Positions 1,268 to 8,659 of a stretch of DNA of 13,412 nt are shown piece by piece. Under the pieces are notes generated by a model. The model did not search any database, was not told the DNA's origin, and worked only from the letters and a program-made list of their open reading frames with translations. Both the position numbers and the translations under genes were made by a program. Within the stretch, counting starts at the first letter, position 1, and every line of letters starts with the position of its first letter. Source of the DNA: Thermodesulfobacteriota bacterium (lineage in GTDB: Bacteria; Desulfobacterota_D; UBA1144; Nemesobacterales; N074bin48); contig JBFFSH010000070.1 of NCBI GenBank assembly GCA_041572575.1, positions 1-13,412 on the forward strand. Reading direction: 5' to 3'.

Positions 1268-1948
1268 CTAATAGTCCTTTAGCCGGAATTTTACTGGTAC
1301 CTTAACCCAGCTTGCAAATTGAACCCCATTTTGTTTGCCGGGTATAAAATTCCACTTGTTAACAGCATTTATTGCTGCTAAATCCAATACTCTAAATGCT
1401 GAGCTTTTTTCTATATCGACTTTGCCTACTTTTCCGTCTTCAAGTACCAGCACTTTTAACAACACCGTCCCTTCATATCCCCTTCTTCTGGCAATTAGAG
1501 GGTAAGGAGGTTTTGGATTAGCACTATAATCCGGGTATGCATCTTCATTTATACTCTCTATATTTACTTGCTGATAGTTGTTCTCTTTGGAACTACTTTT
1601 TATTTTTTTTGCAATTTTATTATCTGCTTCGCTTGTCTGCTCAATTCGTACTTCTGTAGGAGATGCCTTTATTTGGTTAGTTTCTTTCTTTGTCCTGGAT
1701 TTGTTCTTGATTGAAATTGGTTTTTTCGTAATGCTAGTTTTAGCTCTACTGGTAACCGGTTTCCTGGATTCAGTGTTATTTTGGGTATTACTGCTCTTTG
1801 ATGCAACTTTTACAGTGCTTACTTCAAAAAAGCTGGATATAGCAACTTTTGCTTCACTTCTAAAGATTAAAGCTAAAACAGATAGTAAAACAAAGTGTGC
1901 TAGCACTGATATTACAACAAATTTATTAATATTTTTTTGTTTAAGCAT
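1268..1948 (-). CDS. tonB: TonB family energy transducer
   Basis: N-terminal TM helix with S-x3-H (SVLAHFVLL), a Lys/Ser/Thr-rich linker, and a TonB_C domain PPYPLIARRRGYEGTVLLKVLV..G.V..V.IEKSS...LDLAAINAVNKWNFIPG. Confidence 0.9.
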   Translation of the reverse strand: MLKQKNINKFVVISVLAHFVLLSVLALIFRSEAKVAISSFFEVSTVKVASKSSNTQNNTESRKPVTSRAKTSITKKPISIKNKSRTKKETNQIKASPTEVRIEQTSEADNKIAKKIKSSSKENNYQQVNIESINEDAYPDYSANPKPPYPLIARRRGYEGTVLLKVLVLEDGKVGKVDIEKSSAFRVLDLAAINAVNKWNFIPGKQNGVQFASWVKVPVKFRLKDY

Positions 1949-2151: not shown

Positions 2152-3462
2152 TTAAACTGCATTTGATTGTTCTATTTGTCTGATTAGGTTTCTTACCTCA
2201 TCGGCTGAGCTCATATCAAAATATGGATTTGTTTTAAGGCAAAGATCAAAATATTTTTTCGCATCAGATAAATTACCTGCACTGTAATTTATCATTCCTG
2301 CATGGAAATAAATCCCGGCATCTTTAGTGCCGTGCTCAAGCGATTTCTTGGAGTACTTAAGGGCCTGTTTGAAATTGCCAAGTTTATAATAAACCCAGGC
2401 CAGAGTGTCATATGTAAAAACATCCTGTTTCATCTCCAGGTCTTTGTGCGCAAGTTCCAATGCATTATCAAGCTTTATTTCATTATCAGCATAAAAAGCG
2501 GCATGATGTTCCAGGTATCCTAAATAACCTGAATCCAGATAATTTTCATATTTATCCTTTGCTATTTTTAAATGTTCCTCTGCTTTTTCTTTATTGCCCA
2601 TCTTGTCATAAACTCCTGAAATAGCAGCATGAAAATCAGGGCTTGGGTTTATCTCTAGCACGACTTGATAAATCTTTATAGCTTTTTCATAATCTCCTTT
2701 AACAGCATTTATCTCTGCTAAGTGTTCTAGGGCCAAATAATAATTGTTTAGATGTGATAGGGATTTCAGGTAATGAACCTCTGCGTTTTTTAAATCACCT
2801 TTATTAAAGTAGAGTGAACCTAGTATTACTTCTGCCCATGCCATGTTTTCTTTTGGCAGTCTGTGTCTAAATCCGTATCTAATCGATTTCTTCATTTCCA
2901 AAATTGCTCCGTCTGTGTCTCCGGTTATATCTTTTATATGTGATAGGCGGCTAAGTGAATATAGACTTGATTTTAGGCTTACCATCTTTTCATAGGCCCT
3001 TTGAGCTTGTTTATATTGCCCAAGCTCTATATATGCATCACCCATAATTCCATATGCTGATGCTTCTTTATTATCTATCTCCATAGCTTTTTTAGCGTAT
3101 TTAAGAGTCTTATTAAAATCGTGTCTTGATGATGCAACCTGTCCTAGGAATATATAAGAATTATAATTATTGCTGTTTAGTTCTAATGATTTTTTGAGAA
3201 ACTGCTCAGCTTTATCGTACAGAGAAAGGTCACCGGTTTCCCTTGCTTTTCTGATATGCAATTGTCCTAATTTGTCATAATTATAGTAATCCGATGGAGA
3301 TTTCTGTATTTGTAAATGATAGTATTCAATCAAATGGTCAGTACAATTTGTAGTGGTTTGGTTATTTAGATTTAAGCTGCTTAGTGTTATATTTTCTGAA
3401 CTATAGGATGTATTTACCCCAATTATAGTAAAGATAATTAGTAGTAACAGTAATCTTTTCAT
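2152..3462 (-). CDS. Exported tetratricopeptide repeat (TPR) protein
   Basis: Signal peptide MKRLLLLLIIFTIIGVNTSYS; multiple TPR units (e.g. AYGIMGDAYIELGQYKQAQRAYEK, TYDTLAWVYYKLGNFKQALKYSKK); RBS GGAGGA upstream. Confidence 0.9.
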   Translation of the reverse strand: MKRLLLLLIIFTIIGVNTSYSSENITLSSLNLNNQTTTNCTDHLIEYYHLQIQKSPSDYYNYDKLGQLHIRKARETGDLSLYDKAEQFLKKSLELNSNNYNSYIFLGQVASSRHDFNKTLKYAKKAMEIDNKEASAYGIMGDAYIELGQYKQAQRAYEKMVSLKSSLYSLSRLSHIKDITGDTDGAILEMKKSIRYGFRHRLPKENMAWAEVILGSLYFNKGDLKNAEVHYLKSLSHLNNYYLALEHLAEINAVKGDYEKAIKIYQVVLEINPSPDFHAAISGVYDKMGNKEKAEEHLKIAKDKYENYLDSGYLGYLEHHAAFYADNEIKLDNALELAHKDLEMKQDVFTYDTLAWVYYKLGNFKQALKYSKKSLEHGTKDAGIYFHAGMINYSAGNLSDAKKYFDLCLKTNPYFDMSSADEVRNLIRQIEQSNAV

Positions 3463-3552: not shown

Positions 3553-5214
3553 TTAATCAACAGGACATTCACCCGTAGGTGTTCCTTCACAACCAAGGTC
3601 ACCCGGATCTATATGTCTTGAATCTCTTCCACTATGAGCATCATTTAGATATGGGAAGGATGTTCTGTATGGCTGAACATCATTTACGTTTACACCGTCA
3701 CCAATTCTGTTGTGTGGAAAAATATTAAACTCCGGATTAAGCACACCTACTGCTGCTCTTGAAACAATATCGATCACATCATCAACAACTCTGCGTCCGT
3801 TTGGAAAGCCTGCAGGGTCGTCATTAGTTTCATCTTCGTCAAGTAGTGTTAAAAAACCAAGCCTGCTCTGATTTTCTGGTGCTGTAGGTGCGATACCAGT
3901 GTTCAGACGAAGAAGATCGGCTATTGGTCCCGGGTCAGTACCTTCGGCTGCTACTGGGCCTACATACTGTACGAGAGGAGCAAGGTCTGTTCTTGGAACA
4001 TCGGGTATTGGAAGTATATCCGGTCCGTATAGTGCTTCATATACTGAGTTCAATACACGTGCAATAACTGGGTCAAAAAAGAAGTCTGAAAACTGTGCGT
4101 CATCTCTTGGCTCGCTCATGCTGAATTTATCTTTAGAGCCAATACCTATTATAAGCTCATTTATTAAAGGAGCTCCCATTCTCTGTATCTGTGTATAGCT
4201 GCCTGATAGAACAGGTTTCTGGCCTGGATTTCTGAAAAGCTTGAATGTTGGTCTTGAAGAAGTTCCCCAAACACCTATTGTAGCTTCAGGGACAGTAGAA
4301 GCGTGTTTTGCTCCATCGCTTGTTAGAAGTTTAATTGGAACCTCTATTGCGATTGCATTTACGTTATAGCCTGAAAACTCATCAGAAGCAAAATTCTTAG
4401 TATCATCAGCTTCCTGTTCTTCTGTGAGTACTCCCTGAACAACAAAGCCCTGCGACCTGAAGTTGAATGAATCAAAAGCTGCACCAAGATCGAGCCAGAA
4501 TGGATCATCGACTGTACCTGCAAATGATTTTATGCCTCTGGGTAGTTGGTATATGCCCTGTTCAACAAGAGATGAGTAGTCTGGCATAGTTCTAGGACCA
4601 GCGTTTGTAGGTACTTTAAATAGAGGTCCGCCATTAATGTTGTTAAGAATCGTTCTCTTTCCATTTTTTACCATTGTGACTGTATAAGACTGTCTCAATC
4701 CCAGTCCCTCTGAACCCGGACCGTCAAGAGCAGTAATAGCAGGAGGTACGACGGGGTTTCCGACTGTTGGAACACCATCGAGGTCTGCCGGGGCATTTGC
4801 GGGAGCGTTTATTCCATCCAGTGCGCCCACATAAGCTGTGAACACATTTGGTAACCTGATTTCATTTTTAAATTTGAATTCAAAAATTATATCTTCTTTA
4901 GCATCATGGTCATTGTCAATCCTTATTGCATAAAGAATCTCTTCATCAAAAGGGAAATACGTAGGGCCATTGCCTGGCTCTAGAAACGGATCATAGGTTA
5001 CAATCATGGTAACCTTATCTGAAGCCTTTGGATCATTTGGGTCATAACTAACAAATGCAAATACATCTGGTATATCAGCTTCATCATCGATTGCTGATAT
5101 AGGTGATTCTCTATGGTTTGCGCCATAGGTGTTTATATTTAGTCCCATTGTGAGGGATAAAACAAAGAAAAGAATGAGAATAAAACTTGATTTTGTTGCT
5201 TGAAAAGTTCTCAT
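3553..5214 (-). CDS. Exported DUF4331-family protein
   Basis: Signal peptide followed by ANHRESP (family-type S.HREAP), DIPDVFAF, FAGTVDDPFWLDLG, QIQRMGAPLINE, DLLRLN, GFPNGRRVVDDVID. Start moved from 5247 to ATG 5214 because AAAGGAGGT precedes it and ATG 5247 overlaps the -10 element. Confidence 0.85.
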   Translation of the reverse strand: MRTFQATKSSFILILFFVLSLTMGLNINTYGANHRESPISAIDDEADIPDVFAFVSYDPNDPKASDKVTMIVTYDPFLEPGNGPTYFPFDEEILYAIRIDNDHDAKEDIIFEFKFKNEIRLPNVFTAYVGALDGINAPANAPADLDGVPTVGNPVVPPAITALDGPGSEGLGLRQSYTVTMVKNGKRTILNNINGGPLFKVPTNAGPRTMPDYSSLVEQGIYQLPRGIKSFAGTVDDPFWLDLGAAFDSFNFRSQGFVVQGVLTEEQEADDTKNFASDEFSGYNVNAIAIEVPIKLLTSDGAKHASTVPEATIGVWGTSSRPTFKLFRNPGQKPVLSGSYTQIQRMGAPLINELIIGIGSKDKFSMSEPRDDAQFSDFFFDPVIARVLNSVYEALYGPDILPIPDVPRTDLAPLVQYVGPVAAEGTDPGPIADLLRLNTGIAPTAPENQSRLGFLTLLDEDETNDDPAGFPNGRRVVDDVIDIVSRAAVGVLNPEFNIFPHNRIGDGVNVNDVQPYRTSFPYLNDAHSGRDSRHIDPGDLGCEGTPTGECPVD

Positions 5215-5245: not shown

Positions 5246-5276
5246 ATATACGGAGGTACTAAGCTTATTGGATGAA
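5246..5276 (-). promoter_or_regulatory. ECF sigma promoter copy 1 (TTCATCCAA-N15-CGTATAT), upstream of DUF4331-TPR
   Basis: Plus strand ATATACG 5246-5252, 15-nt spacer, TTGGATGAA 5268-5276; both boxes identical to the copies at 6510-6540 and 7939-7969. Confidence 0.85.
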
Positions 5277-5380
5277 TAATTTATAAAATATTTTATATAT
5301 CATTAAAATTATTGTTAATATAGTCATATGCAGGGACAGTTAGATTAATAACATATAAATATGAAGAGGTAATAATAGAA

Positions 5381-5421
5381 AATAAAAAAGCCCTTTACAG
5401 TGCAGTAAAGGGCTTTTCTTT
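5381..5421 (-). terminator. Rho-independent terminator after the 88-aa secreted protein gene (could work in both directions)
   Basis: AAAAGCCCTTTAC (5386-5398), 6-nt loop, GTAAAGGGCTTTT (5405-5417); T-tracts on both strands (minus: TTTTTTATTTT). Confidence 0.9.
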
Positions 5422-5456
5422 TAGGAGGATGGGGTTGGGGGTTTAGTTTTTATGAT

Positions 5457-5723
5457 TTATATTTTTACACCAAATACTGATAGATCGGAGCTGCTGATAT
5501 TATCTCTTGCCTGAGCATCCTGATCTATTACAACATCCTTTTGATCCTGATTCTGCAGATAAAAGCTTATATGGTCTTGTTCTACCTTGCCACCTTTAAT
5601 CTGATCACTTACATGCTGCTTTTCTATTGGAGTGTCCACTCCAAATATATTGGTATCAGCAGAACCTACCACTGGCATACTTAGTGCTAATCCAATTGCT
5701 GCTACTGTTAATAATTTTTTCAT
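5457..5723 (-). CDS. Small secreted hypothetical protein (88 aa)
   Basis: RBS GGAGG, Sec signal peptide MKKLLTVAAIGLALSMPVVGSA, followed by a terminator. Confidence 0.8.
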   Translation of the reverse strand: MKKLLTVAAIGLALSMPVVGSADTNIFGVDTPIEKQHVSDQIKGGKVEQDHISFYLQNQDQKDVVIDQDAQARDNISSSDLSVFGVKI

Positions 5724-5753
5724 TTTACTGCCTCCAATTATGTATTTATCTAT

Positions 5754-5781
5754 TTAGACATATAACTAATAATAACGATTC
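5754..5781 (-). promoter_or_regulatory. Possible RpoE-like ECF promoter (GAATC-N17-GTCTAA) for the 88-aa gene
   Basis: Minus strand TGAATC GTTATTATTAGTTATAT GTCTAA in the 61-nt gap after the sigma-2 stop. It resembles GAAC..GTC/TCTAA ECF promoters but occurs only once. Confidence 0.35.
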
Positions 5782-5784
5782 ATA

Positions 5785-6468
5785 TTATTTTAAAATAGTA
5801 GATAATTTTTCAAAAAGCATGTTTCTGGCTCTTAGGAGTCTTGATTTAAATGCGGTTAAAGTGATATCCGTAATGTCTGCTGCTTCCTGGTTGCTAAGGC
5901 CTTCAATATCTCTCAGTTCTATGACAATCCTATATTTCTCCGGCAATGAATCAATTGAGCTTCGTACAATATCAAGGATTTCTTTATTAATATTGGTTTC
6001 ATCGGGAATAGTACTATGATCCTCATGATCTATTGTAGTGCCATGCTCAGTATTACTGTCACTCTCCATGCTTGCTTTGTCTCTGTTCTTTTTTCTTAGA
6101 AACGAATAGGTAGCATTAATGCTTACCCTGTAAATCCACGTTGAGAATTTGGAATCGCCTCTATAATAGTGAATCTTTTCCAGTAGCGTAAGGAATATAT
6201 TTTGCAATACGTCTTCTGCATCCACGCTGTTCTTTGTAATAGATAAAGTAAGTCTATAAATTTTATCTATATAACGAAAGGCAATCTCATTTATTGCTTC
6301 ATCATCTTTATTCTCAATGTATAATTTTGTGAGGTGCTCATCAGTATATTCTTTGTAGTTATGCTTTTGCTCTTTATAGAATATATTTAGTAGATGCTGC
6401 ACGCTATTAGTGCCGGGTGTTGATATGCTGTTTGATTTATCAACATTTAATGAATTATAAGTAAGCAT
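5785..6468 (-). CDS. ECF sigma-70 family factor (RpoE/SigW-like), 'sigma-2'
   Basis: Region 2 DAEDVLQNIFL..YRGDSKFSTWIYRVSIN; region 4 LPEKYRIVIELRDIEGLSNQEAA..AFKSRLLRAR; RBS AAGGAGG. Confidence 0.93.
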   Translation of the reverse strand: MLTYNSLNVDKSNSISTPGTNSVQHLLNIFYKEQKHNYKEYTDEHLTKLYIENKDDEAINEIAFRYIDKIYRLTLSITKNSVDAEDVLQNIFLTLLEKIHYYRGDSKFSTWIYRVSINATYSFLRKKNRDKASMESDSNTEHGTTIDHEDHSTIPDETNINKEILDIVRSSIDSLPEKYRIVIELRDIEGLSNQEAADITDITLTAFKSRLLRARNMLFEKLSTILK

Positions 6469-6509
6469 GTTTATATCCTCCTTAGCTTAACTTTATGTAT
6501 TTGTTATAG

Positions 6510-6540
6510 ATATACGCAGGAGGATATGTGATTGGATGAA
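6510..6540 (-). promoter_or_regulatory. ECF sigma promoter copy 2 (TTCATCCAA-N15-CGTATAT), upstream of sigma-2
   Basis: Plus strand ATATACG 6510-6516, 15-nt spacer, TTGGATGAA 6532-6540. Confidence 0.85.
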
Positions 6541-6644
6541 CTTATTTGAAAATAGTCTGATTAATAAGGATAGTTTAATCTTGAGTAGAAAAAATTAGGA
6601 TAAAATAAAACTGGTTGATTATAAAGCTCTGGGATGCAAGCAGA

Positions 6645-6971
6645 TTAAACGTGGTGCTCAATCATCTCGTTTTTAGCCGAAGCCATAACTAAGAGAGTAC
6701 AGCCGTTTTCTGAATATATTGAGTGATGTGTACTATCTGCATCGGCTCTTATATAATCACCTGAGGTAAACTTATGCCCTCCCATATTCAGGTCGCCTTC
6801 GATAATATAACACTCCTCATCTTCTGCATGCTTATGATCGGGAAAAGCTGCGCCTGGCTCCATCTTTACAAGCACTGTAGAATATTGTCTGTCCTGGTCT
6901 GTGTATAAATTTTTTACTTGTACGCCTTTAACAACCTCTACCCAGGAGCCTTCATTTTCTCTTACATACAA
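6645..6971 (-). CDS. ChrR-like cupin domain; probably the C-terminal half of a frameshifted anti-sigma factor
   Basis: Cupin metal motif PDHKHAEDEECYIIEG...GDYIRADADSTHH..SENGC. Only a TTG start with a closely spaced AAAGGA; the frame is open upstream to the A8 run at 7005-7012. Confidence 0.85.
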   Translation of the reverse strand: MYVRENEGSWVEVVKGVQVKNLYTDQDRQYSTVLVKMEPGAAFPDHKHAEDEECYIIEGDLNMGGHKFTSGDYIRADADSTHHSIYSENGCTLLVMASAKNEMIEHHV

Positions 6972-7231
6972 AAATCCTTTGTCGTGAGAAGTTTTATCAG
7001 TGGGTTTTTTTTAATTTTTGAAAGTATACTGTTTTTGAGCTCAGCTCGCGGACTTTCAGGAGTAAAATTATAGAGTAGCGCTTCTTTTGCTTTATAAAGC
7101 GTGTCTAATTCAGATTCCAATAAAGCGGTGTCTTCAGAAGATAATGAGTCTATTGCCATATTATCTTCATCTTCCAACAGCTCCAGTGTTTTAAGTGCCG
7201 CTAATTCTTCAATCTTACCGTTGTCTGACAT
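6962..7231 (-). CDS. Anti-sigma domain (RskA/ChrR N-terminal-like); N-terminal half of a frameshifted anti-sigma factor
   Basis: IEELAALKTLELL...PESPRAELKNSILSKI fits the ASD pattern (ELAA.YALG.L ... P.P...LK..IL..I); coupled to the sigma-1 stop via TAATG at 7233-7229. Confidence 0.75.
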   Translation of the reverse strand: MSDNGKIEELAALKTLELLEDEDNMAIDSLSSEDTALLESELDTLYKAKEALLYNFTPESPRAELKNSILSKIKKNPLIKLLTTKDFCM

Positions 7232-7830
7232 TAATTAAGTTCCTCTTTAAATATCTCCATCTGTTCTCTGAGTTTGTTCATGCCAAGCCTTATCCAGCTC
7301 TTTACCGTTCCCAGAGGCTCATTCATTTCATTTGCTATCTCACTTTGACTGAGTCCATAAAAATATGCAAGCTCAATTGCCTTCCTTTGCTTGTCTCCTA
7401 GCATTGAAAGTGCCTTATTAACAATATTTTTTCTCTCATTTACATATTTTTCATCTTCCGGTGTTAAACCAAACTCGACAATCTCTTCTTCTGAGCTGAT
7501 TTCCAGTGTATTTCTCTTTGATCCTGCTCTTAACTTATCTATTGACCTTGTTCTGGTAATCATAAGAAGCCATGTCATGGGACCGGCTTTTGACGAATCA
7601 TACTGTGAAGCTTTTTCCCATACCTGCATATATACTTCCATCATTACTTCCTCTGAATCTTCAACATCAAACAGTATTTTTTTTGCAAGACCATAAACCA
7701 TGCTGCTTGTCTGGTCATAAAAACTACTAAACGCAGCTTCATCCCCTGTGGATATTGCTGCCAGTAAACCTTCAAGGTCTTCCCTACCCCTGGGGATACT
7801 AGCCGTATCGTGTGTTTGAATCTGTGTCAT
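7231..7830 (-). CDS. ECF sigma-70 family factor, SigK-like, 'sigma-1'
   Basis: GDEAAFSSFYD..VYGLA..DSEEVMMEVYMQVWEKASQYDSSKAGPMTWLLMITRTRSIDKLR; region 4 IELAYFYGLSQSEIA..PLGTVKSWIRLGM. The ORF-track start 7938 abuts the -10 box, so ATG 7830 is preferred, although it lacks a clear SD (start uncertain). Confidence 0.92.
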   Translation of the reverse strand: MTQIQTHDTASIPRGREDLEGLLAAISTGDEAAFSSFYDQTSSMVYGLAKKILFDVEDSEEVMMEVYMQVWEKASQYDSSKAGPMTWLLMITRTRSIDKLRAGSKRNTLEISSEEEIVEFGLTPEDEKYVNERKNIVNKALSMLGDKQRKAIELAYFYGLSQSEIANEMNEPLGTVKSWIRLGMNKLREQMEIFKEELN

Positions 7831-7866
7831 AGCACAATTGCATAAATAATTACTGTACGGATTAAC

Positions 7867-7895
7867 ATTATATAATATTCCGCTGTATTTGGAAA
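7867..7895 (-). promoter_or_regulatory. Possible sigma70-type basal promoter for sigma-1 (TTTCCA-N17-TATAAT)
   Basis: Minus-strand TATAAT at 7872-7867 and TTTCCA at 7895-7890 with a 17-nt spacer. AT-rich context makes a chance match possible. Confidence 0.3.
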
Positions 7896-7938
7896 TACCA
7901 TCTGTCAATATTGATACGGCGTAACTGTTCACGTACAT

Positions 7939-7969
7939 ATATACGTAAACTATTACCGTTTTGGATGAA
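7939..7969 (-). promoter_or_regulatory. ECF sigma promoter copy 3 (TTCATCCAA-N15-CGTATAT), autoregulatory position upstream of sigma-1
   Basis: Plus strand ATATACG 7939-7945, 15-nt spacer, TTGGATGAA 7961-7969. Confidence 0.85.
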
Positions 7970-7983
7970 AATAATGATAAAAT

Positions 7984-8397
7984 TTATTCCAATACAGGCT
8001 CAACACCAATAATTCTAATGTTTTTTGCAATATATCCCATCGATCCAGCACCGAGTGTGGTACCGCCTTTAACATAAATATCACTCGAATTTGCAGGTAC
8101 TGTTATTGGAAGTACTCCGCTTGTGCTGCTTAAATATCTATTGTATTTGGGGTAGTTTGAATAATAATCCACCTTAACCCTGATATTCTTATAATCTATA
8201 CTAGCCGTATTTTCTATTTCTACATGGTGGATAATAGCAACCCTTGCGGCAACATAGAACTGCCAATCGGTTATTTTTAGGTAGTTTTGAGGGTTTTCTA
8301 CCATATCGTTCTTTGTTTGTTCAGAAGCTGTGGCACTGTATAATCCTGTAAAAATTAGTATAGATACTAATATTAAAGCAGAGGTTATCTTGATCAT
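7984..8397 (-). CDS. Exported or membrane-anchored hypothetical protein, beta-rich (possibly FxLYD/Ig-like)
   Basis: ATG 8397 after a GGGGGG RBS-like run (ORF track starts at TTG 8421); signal peptide MIKITSALILVSILIFTGLYSATA; alternating beta pattern HVEIENTASIDYKNIRVKVDYY. Confidence 0.7.
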   Translation of the reverse strand: MIKITSALILVSILIFTGLYSATASEQTKNDMVENPQNYLKITDWQFYVAARVAIIHHVEIENTASIDYKNIRVKVDYYSNYPKYNRYLSSTSGVLPITVPANSSDIYVKGGTTLGAGSMGYIAKNIRIIGVEPVLE

Positions 8398-8659
8398 TAT
8401 AGGGCCCCCCAGAGGATTCAATCTAGATTCAATATAGATATTGTAGCAGAAAAATAATCAAATGGGGGCGATTATAGTGTTACGGAGCTAAAAAGTACTT
8501 TAAATATAAGAAAATATCAGTATAATCTATAGGCTCGGCTGAATACTGCCAGTAACGGTGTTTCTTTAGGATTCATTTCCTGGGTAGAAAATGTAAAAAG
8601 TAGTAATAATTTATTTACTAAGGTATTCAGAATTATATTCTTTATAGGTGATTTGTTAT

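Follow-up and report, generated by a model that had tools for sequence, protein, structure and literature searches.

The closest described relatives of the system reported here are the SigK-RskA pairs of mycobacteria and the groups ECF18 and ECF214 of the extracytoplasmic function (ECF) sigma factors, group ECF11 with RpoE-ChrR of Rhodobacter sphaeroides and RpoE2 of Shewanella, and subgroup ECF19s19. The promoter signatures (−35/−10) given in PMC7826278 are GTGATC/CGTA for ECF11, TGCATCTT/CGTA for ECF18 and ATC/CG for ECF19, and the ECF214 motif of the same source reads CATCC...CGTATATA as its reverse complement. ECF19s19 is described there with a soluble ChrR-like cupin anti-sigma factor (PMC7826278, Casas-Pastor et al. 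2021), and DUF4331 is listed as a neighbour of ECF18s13 and ECF214s1, with fasciclin and SelR also among the listed neighbours (PMC7826278). The RpoE2 promoters of Shewanella are TGATCC-N16-CGTA with mapped starts, its RpoE uses GAACTT/TC(C/T)A (PMC4336711), and SigK drives another ECF gene, sigC (PMC4821874). Promoter class, gene context and ECF-to-ECF control are thus already published and the surprise is modest. Our literature search found DUF4331 named in no main text, nothing on-topic for sigma factors in Dadabacteria and nothing on this system for frameshifted anti-sigma factors with homopolymer tracts. We studied a stretch of 13,412 nucleotides (in the following the window) of an uncultured Thermodesulfobacteriota bacterium (GCA_041572575.1, contig JBFFSH010000070.1; genome G000, 2.6 Mb in 137 contigs, 96% complete), which carries two ECF sigma genes, sigma-1 and sigma-2, an anti-sigma gene and a DUF4331 gene. 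From sequence comparison we consider the predicted four-promoter regulon of the published class, with its lineage-specific anti-sigma frameshift, to be real in this poorly studied group, and a regulon read by sigma-1 is the explanation in which we have good confidence. It would be among the first candidate ECF regulons found for this uncultured group and would, throughout an order, connect DUF4331-TPR with a stress response of the SigK clade.

On the minus strand the order is motif, sigma-1, anti-sigma in two frames, motif, sigma-2, a second motif type, a gene for 88 amino acids (aa), a hairpin, motif, DUF4331 and TPR (Table 1). The bipartite pattern TTCATCCAA-N15-CGTATAT matches the window exactly three times, always on the minus strand and between genes, 5' of sigma-1, sigma-2 and DUF4331, respectively. 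This confirms the 16 identical bases, the invariant 15-nt spacer and the placement reported in a preliminary description of the sequence. The pattern was not encountered in 200 dinucleotide shuffles. As it had been picked after the data were seen, we used a second test and searched for any 9+15+7 word occurring three times within 3 kb. Across both strands of the genome the sole such triple with unrelated spacers is formed by these sites, and 100 block-shuffled windows held no triple of any kind (0/100). The spacers share only 3–7 of 15 bases, which rules out a recent duplication; the earlier statement that the repeats are not a simple duplication holds to that extent, but the AT-rich flanks of the three sites (7–17 of 30 bases identical) are compatible with an old common origin, which the sites may have. 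The label of a local regulon also needs adjustment: three copies are local, but a fourth exact copy is found on another contig (G000:C27:5370-5400). It lies 58 bases 5' of the gene for a 219-aa secreted helical protein without a Pfam family, which is followed by a cupredoxin gene (G000:C27:5370-6563). Homologues of this C27 protein in G018 and G023 have the motif as well, and in G030 the homologue precedes a DUF4331 gene; an atlas search with the protein returned unnamed clusters only.

We regard the copies as likely −35/−10 promoters. The status as promoter-like elements follows from boxes that are conserved over their spacers, a fixed position before Shine-Dalgarno sites and conservation across the order. 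In a syntenic metagenome locus of a sister lineage (L038, 87% identical to the window) we observed no changes at the 48 box positions and 14 changes at the 45 spacer positions (Fisher p = 1e-5). In a class-wide survey of 120 genomes DUF4331 was found in 22. A scan 5' of the orthologues detected the core TCC-N16/17-CGTA at about the same distance before 16 of the 20 DUF4331 genes of relatives and in 0 of 40 control stretches; G000, a weak hit in G006 and two fragments with the 3' end only, which are duplicated or cut, are not among the 20. The spacer is 15 bases long at all window sites and 14 or 15 in relatives. In a genome-wide scan with a matrix for which 18 sites were taken from relatives alone, the four G000 sites rank first (scores 25.6, 25.6, 24.9 and 23.1) and all are intergenic, and the lower-ranked matches are at shuffle level. 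In relatives the motif also occurs 5' of fasciclin-msrB, a ferritin-like gene, a C27-type protein gene and a small secreted gene. Fasciclin and msrB of G000 are located elsewhere with no motif 5' of them and were rejected as targets. Several relatives (L103, L104, L105/L117, L113, L115) have two adjacent SigK-clade systems, one with a membrane RskA and one with a soluble cupin anti-sigma factor, and the motif is common to both. Relaxed sites at C25:4876, C45:13760, C13:36358 and C61:6165 lie within or antisense to genes and were treated as chance. A sigma70-like site at 7895-7867 was not counted as evidence because such sites are rarer than in shuffles.

In order to assign a reader to the motif we compared the two sigma factors of the window. 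For sigma-1 the best NCBIfam match is PRK09646 SigK (157 bits, below the cut-off of 226), and the best PDB matches are SigK (4nqw, E 4e-32) and R. sphaeroides RpoE (2q1z, E 3e-20). Sigma-1 is hence closest to SigK and R. sphaeroides RpoE among the ECFs, though below the family cut-off, and by sequence match its motif combines a (C/G)ATC −35 with a CGTA −10. The best structural relatives of sigma-2 are E. coli RpoE, SigW and AlgU-type proteins, and in the tree the sigma-1 and sigma-2 families form separate clades. G000 contains 17 sigma70 region-2 matches; none of seven further full-length ECFs that were scanned matched SigK at E<1e-22, and the sigma-1 profile has one match in the genome. A SigK-clade sigma is present in 20 of the 22 DUF4331 genomes compared to 42 of all 120, and G048, the only such genome among 37 of its family, has sigma, motif and DUF4331 side by side. 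The motif precedes just 1 of 28 sigma-2-family genes, namely the window's own. As sigma-1 is the only SigK-clade sigma of G000 and the motif is that rare at sigma-2-family genes, sigma-1 is the likely reader and sigma-2 a target. We consider it very likely that sigma-1 reads the four predicted promoters; its family, the lack of a second such sigma in the genome and the co-occurrence with DUF4331 support the earlier proposal that sigma-1 drives its own operon, sigma-2 and DUF4331-TPR. The association of a CATCC-type −35 with SigK-like sigmas and of a CGT(A) −10 core with ECFs, likewise put forward there, agrees with the signatures published for ECF11, ECF18, ECF19 and ECF214 (PMC7826278). RNA polymerase with sigma-1 would transcribe sigma-1 together with its anti-sigma gene, sigma-2 as a second-tier ECF, DUF4331-TPR, and the secreted helical C27 protein with the cupredoxin.

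Several observations weigh against this assignment. G048 also has a sigma-2-family gene and so does not exclude sigma-2 as the reader. G001, which belongs to the same genus as G000, has retained a good motif 5' of DUF4331 as well as genes of the sigma-2 family, and no sigma-1 was found in its 74% complete genome. Of the 14 orthologues of sigma-1 that have a cupin partner, only 4 carry the TCC-core motif 5' of the gene (5 with a looser core), so autoregulation is not general. Furthermore the co-occurrence of DUF4331 and SigK tracks phylogeny and kin are not independent, and one of three genome shuffles held a site scoring 22.1, close to the weakest real site. A covariation in sigma4 (TVKSW with C/AATCC, SVKST with GA/GCTCC) tracks family lines as well and was not counted as independent support. 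If sigma-2 or its paralogues read TTCATCC/CGTA and sigma-1 were a target, the motif directly 5' of sigma-2 in the window and in L038 would be expected, and G001 would fit too. We nevertheless consider this very improbable in view of the single motif among the 28 sigma-2-family genes and of the nearest structures of sigma-2, which are of a class whose promoters read GAACTT/GTCT; directly 3' of sigma-2 lies a motif of this type, the G030 sigma-2 stands behind a sigma54-type site, and the G001 locus is a deletion derivative (see below). The repeats could also be non-functional, as relics of duplication or by chance. The flanks of the DUF4331, sigma-2 and C27 sites have 10–17 of 30 bases in common, as relics might, and single exact matches are common by chance: the 16-base pattern has at least 119 matches in GTDB genomes, and among the first 119, which are the matches listed, 97 are inside open reading frames and none adjoins an ECF gene. 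These matches therefore show no wider reach of the pattern. The selective retention of the boxes over the spacers, the fixed position before Shine-Dalgarno sites and the order-wide conservation leave such an origin next to no probability, and we retain sigma-1 as the reader of four promoters.

Compared with the described systems the locus combines features of three. With ECF19s19 (PMC7826278) it shares a SigK-like sigma, an anti-sigma gene at position +1 with a cupin and no membrane span, an ATC −35 and a CG −10. Unlike ECF19s19 the anti-sigma is split in G000, though intact in L038 and relatives, and we found no mention of a Candidatus Dadabacteria-like host in the supplement text of PMC7826278. 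The likeness to SigK-RskA and ECF18/ECF214 lies in 4nqw as the best solved relative of sigma-1, in the RskA-type N-terminal anti-sigma domain, in the CATC/CGTA promoter and in the DUF4331, fasciclin and SelR/MsrB neighbours (PMC7826278). A second ECF under control has its parallel in sigC under SigK (PMC4821874), and natural anti-sigma remnants of about 80 aa occur with a cysteine-less SigK (PMC7509140). In contrast to ECF18, sigma-1 lacks the sigma4 cysteine pair (no Cys in 199 aa), and the +1 gene encodes an anti-sigma domain plus cupin rather than a single-pass membrane RskA; no membrane-anchored RskA was found in G000. The position of fasciclin and msrB, elsewhere in G000 and without motif, is a further difference from SigK-RskA. 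As in the ECF11 pairs RpoE-ChrR and RpoE2, the cupin has the H-x-H-x3-E...H residues, and the ECF11 promoter TGATCC-N16-CGTA is one base and one spacer position away from the window motif, with the GTGATCC sites of relatives matching it; ChrR without its cupin (ChrR85) mimics the truncated anti-sigma of the window. Unlike ECF11, the anti-sigma domain has no His/Cys zinc site, sigma-1 is closer to SigK, the cupin half scores 35.8 against TIGR02451 (cut-off 124.5), and the top four matrix sites of G000 are not before the core targets of ECF11 (photolyase, cyclopropane/furan fatty acid genes).

The anti-sigma gene of the window is interrupted by the loss of one base. In L038 it encodes one protein of 195 aa and has nine As where the window has eight (A8, 7012-7005). 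The full-length form is intact in all 14 other genomes with a match, where the run consists of plain in-frame Lys codons. An assembly error as the cause was rejected: none of four DNA runs, which represent four studies and are all flagged as possible sources, showed an insertion or deletion in the A8 run, nor did the single bridging contig from an RNA library, and the 89-aa half is present on 150 contigs (the 108-aa half on 139, sigma-1 on 148). A word-limited search with the L038 anti-sigma protein returned 15 proteins, with no full-length form of the window's lineage among them. The loss falls between the anti-sigma domain and the ChrR-type cupin, just past the RskA-matching region. The N-terminal profile matches the RskA fragment 4nqw_B at positions 4-75 (E 0.019) as well as the RskA-like protein of a relative (probability 96%), and an alignment of 23 homologues shows no conserved His or Cys in this domain. 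In the same homologues the cupin metal ligands H, H, E and H are near-invariant, and they are present in the window's cupin, which has no stops and a ratio of nonsynonymous to synonymous substitution rates (dN/dS) of 0.15 against L038. A single-chain model of the 89-aa protein (helical; predicted local distance difference test score 58) was not used. In the intact form (L038 and the 14 other genomes) the soluble anti-sigma would bind sigma-1 through its RskA-type N-terminal domain, and the metal-binding cupin would sense redox or metal stress and release sigma-1. In the window's lineage the change from A9 to A8 would leave an 89-aa inhibitor without cupin and the regulon mostly off. ChrR85 inhibits, does not respond to singlet oxygen and can respond to organic peroxide (PMC6852236), and RskA remnants of about 80 aa still inhibit a cysteine-less SigK (PMC7509140). 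As both truncations inhibit and sigma-1 has no cysteine, a mostly-off regulon is our best guess: the 89-aa product, which retains the whole N-terminal domain, most likely still inhibits sigma-1, and we lean slightly towards a regulon held mostly off. With the inhibitor of sigma-1 cut from its predicted sensor this small regulon is likely poorly inducible, and it is probably starting to decay.

Two observations on the anti-sigma halves speak against a mostly-off, decaying regulon. The cupin half is undecayed, which agrees with a recent mutation but would look the same if expression had continued, and the anti-sigma domain of the genus lacks conserved residues (YALG is replaced by TLEL) and may bind weakly. 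The frameshift might destroy the anti-sigma through an unstable or non-binding 89-aa product, with the regulon constitutively on, in positive feedback and feeding sigma-2. In agreement with this, the N-terminal domain is only 21–34% identical to homologues outside the genus and without the YALG signature, the product ends in 14 foreign residues, and SigK of other bacteria becomes more active when RskA is lost or mutated (PMC7509140). However, the same divergent residues occur in the intact L038 protein (80% identical), so the divergence predates the frameshift; the shift lies immediately past the domain that corresponds to the crystallised RskA fragment, and both published truncations inhibit (PMC6852236, PMC7509140). 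We judge a constitutively active regulon unlikely. The A8 run may alternatively be a slippage site. Full-length anti-sigma or free cupin would then still be made, by transcriptional slippage, by −1 ribosomal frameshifting at A AAA AAC or through reinitiation at TTG 6971, and the switch would function at a changed threshold. Slippery sites follow the rule X XXY YYZ and the run contains such a heptamer. The open cupin frame with its low dN/dS, the spread of the split form over 150 and 139 contigs and the missing full-length form among the 15 proteins are also in line with slippage. G100 (L117, C1:2702777-2703007) adds a clean 77-aa gene for the anti-sigma domain only, directly behind the motif and before a sigma-1 orthologue with full-length anti-sigma. 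Against slippage, we found no stimulatory RNA structure 3' of the run (z −0.4), the 14 other genomes read it as plain Lys codons in frame, the low dN/dS mostly reflects the time before the mutation, and the same genus shows outright deletion. As for reinitiation, the AAAGGA before TTG 6971 is coding sequence common to the intact sister and only 3 nt from the codon. Taken together slippage appears rather improbable, and a sensor-less inhibitor holding the regulon mostly off stays our preferred reading.

The deletion is found in G001 (L099, G001:C70 2500-2760), where DUF4331 directly follows the same upstream gene and the sigma-1, anti-sigma, sigma-2 and small secreted genes are missing. The intergenic DNA aligns, in this order, to the sigma-1 promoter, which has lost its −10 box there (by itself a weak match, equalled by 10 of 500 shuffles), to the last bases of the anti-sigma gene together with flanking DNA of the sigma-2 promoter (score 89.5, reached by 0 of 500 shuffles) and to the DUF4331 leader. 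We infer two deletions, the second running between two motif copies and leaving a hybrid promoter before DUF4331, so that the repeated promoter was apparently a deletion end point. One regulatory module would then be seen at three stages in one genus: intact in L038, with frameshifted anti-sigma in G000 and with both sigmas deleted in G001. In G030 (C19, L097) sigma-2 and sigma-1 form one operon behind a sigma54-type site, so lineages differ in how these genes are wired. A short STAS-domain gene and an NtrC-like activator gene often precede genes of the sigma-2 family (L097 G030:C19, L121 G000:C5), and a link from sigma54 to ECF at these loci is possible.

A second bipartite motif lies 3' of sigma-2. 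The pattern GAATC-N16-18-GTCTAA has 10 genomic matches, 9 of them intergenic and mostly 58–60 bases from a start codon, compared to 2–5 in five shuffles. Besides the window site, GAATC-N17/18-GTCTAA(A) sites are located at C4:1891, C8:36280, C13:17077, C22:22610, C25:2701, C35:13555, C35:20329 and C75:7493, and the targets include three paralogues of the small secreted protein, a thioredoxin and a DUF2721-BolA-glutaredoxin operon. The motif resembles the ECF02/ECF111 class (PMC7826278) and in this respect fits the family of sigma-2. Its assignment to sigma-2 is not established: class-wide, exact matches are mostly chance or before other genes, and they also occur in genomes without a strong sigma-2-family match. 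Judged from the sequence, sigma-2 and the other RpoE-like ECFs of the genome are equal candidates for its reader. A two-tier cascade from sigma-1 via sigma-2 to the GAATC/GTCTAAA regulon (including the thioredoxin and DUF2721-BolA-glutaredoxin genes), in which slippage at the A8 run would set the top switch by yielding a full-length sensor as well as a sensor-less inhibitor from the one anti-sigma gene, is a doubtful and highly speculative scenario for this uncultured sediment bacterium. In G015 and G020 (L137, L138, L140) the motif is located directly 5' of a 372–374-aa sigma70-family gene.

Table 1. Positions of the features discussed, numbered along the window
Feature	Position	Strand	Remarks
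Motif copy 1	7939..7969	-	−35 TTCATCCAA 7969-7961, −10 CGTATAT 7945-7939; predicted autoregulatory promoter of sigma-1/anti-sigma; boxes identical in L038; top-ranked by the relatives-only matrix
Motif copy 2	6510..6540	-	predicted sigma-1 promoter of sigma-2; followed by Shine-Dalgarno AGGAGG and ATG 6468
Motif copy 3	5246..5276	-	predicted sigma-1 promoter of DUF4331-TPR; followed by Shine-Dalgarno AGGAGG and ATG 5214
Sigma-1	7231..7830	-	SigK-clade ECF sigma, 199 aa from ATG 7830; in-frame GTG 7932 as alternative start; no cysteines
Anti-sigma 5' half	6962..7231	-	RskA-type domain (about residues 1-75) and 14 out-of-frame residues, 89 aa; aligned to 23 full-length homologues
A8 run	7005..7012	-	A9 in L038; site of the one-base loss (pairwise alignment)
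Anti-sigma 3' half	6645..7004	-	ChrR-type cupin, H-x-H-x3-E...H, open frame, possible weak TTG start 6971; Pfam Cupin_7 83 bits
Sigma-2	5785..6468	-	RpoE/SigW-like ECF sigma, best NCBIfam match PRK11922; belongs to a set of 5-6 paralogues in G000
Second motif GAATC-N17-GTCTAAA	5753..5781	-	5' of the small secreted gene; kept in L038
88-aa protein	5457..5723	-	N-terminus resembles a signal peptide; without Pfam family; G000 has two further paralogues outside the window
Intrinsic-terminator-like hairpin	5384..5419	-	separates sigma-2/small gene from DUF4331; consensus scan only
DUF4331 protein	3553..5214	-	553 aa from ATG 5214; PF14224 333 bits
TPR-repeat protein	2152..3462	-	3' of DUF4331 here and in relatives

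The starts of the longest open reading frames, 7938 for sigma-1 and 5247 for DUF4331, abut or overlap the −10 boxes, and ATG 7938 is ATT in L038. These two are probably not the true starts, and ATG 7830 and ATG 5214 (Table 1) are likelier. In both G000 and L038 the frame of the sigma-1 leader (7831-7932, minus strand) is open from GTG 7932, with a dN/dS of about 0.5, and no clear Shine-Dalgarno site stands before ATG 7830. Contigs from RNA runs show neither start, strand nor level and were not used for any conclusion. Those of run X15 cover everything evenly in a DNA-like manner; in X17, X18 and X20 short pieces cover sigma-1/anti-sigma and the small gene, and most of sigma-2 has none. A single study contributed two pieces that end at 7826-7828, and one X18 piece each crosses the DUF4331 promoter and the terminator. 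A conserved unnamed gene for a secreted-type protein of 137–145 aa lies 5' of sigma-1 (7984-8421, minus strand) and is kept in L038 and G001. The TPR gene is followed by a gene with a TonB C-terminal domain (1268-1948, minus strand).

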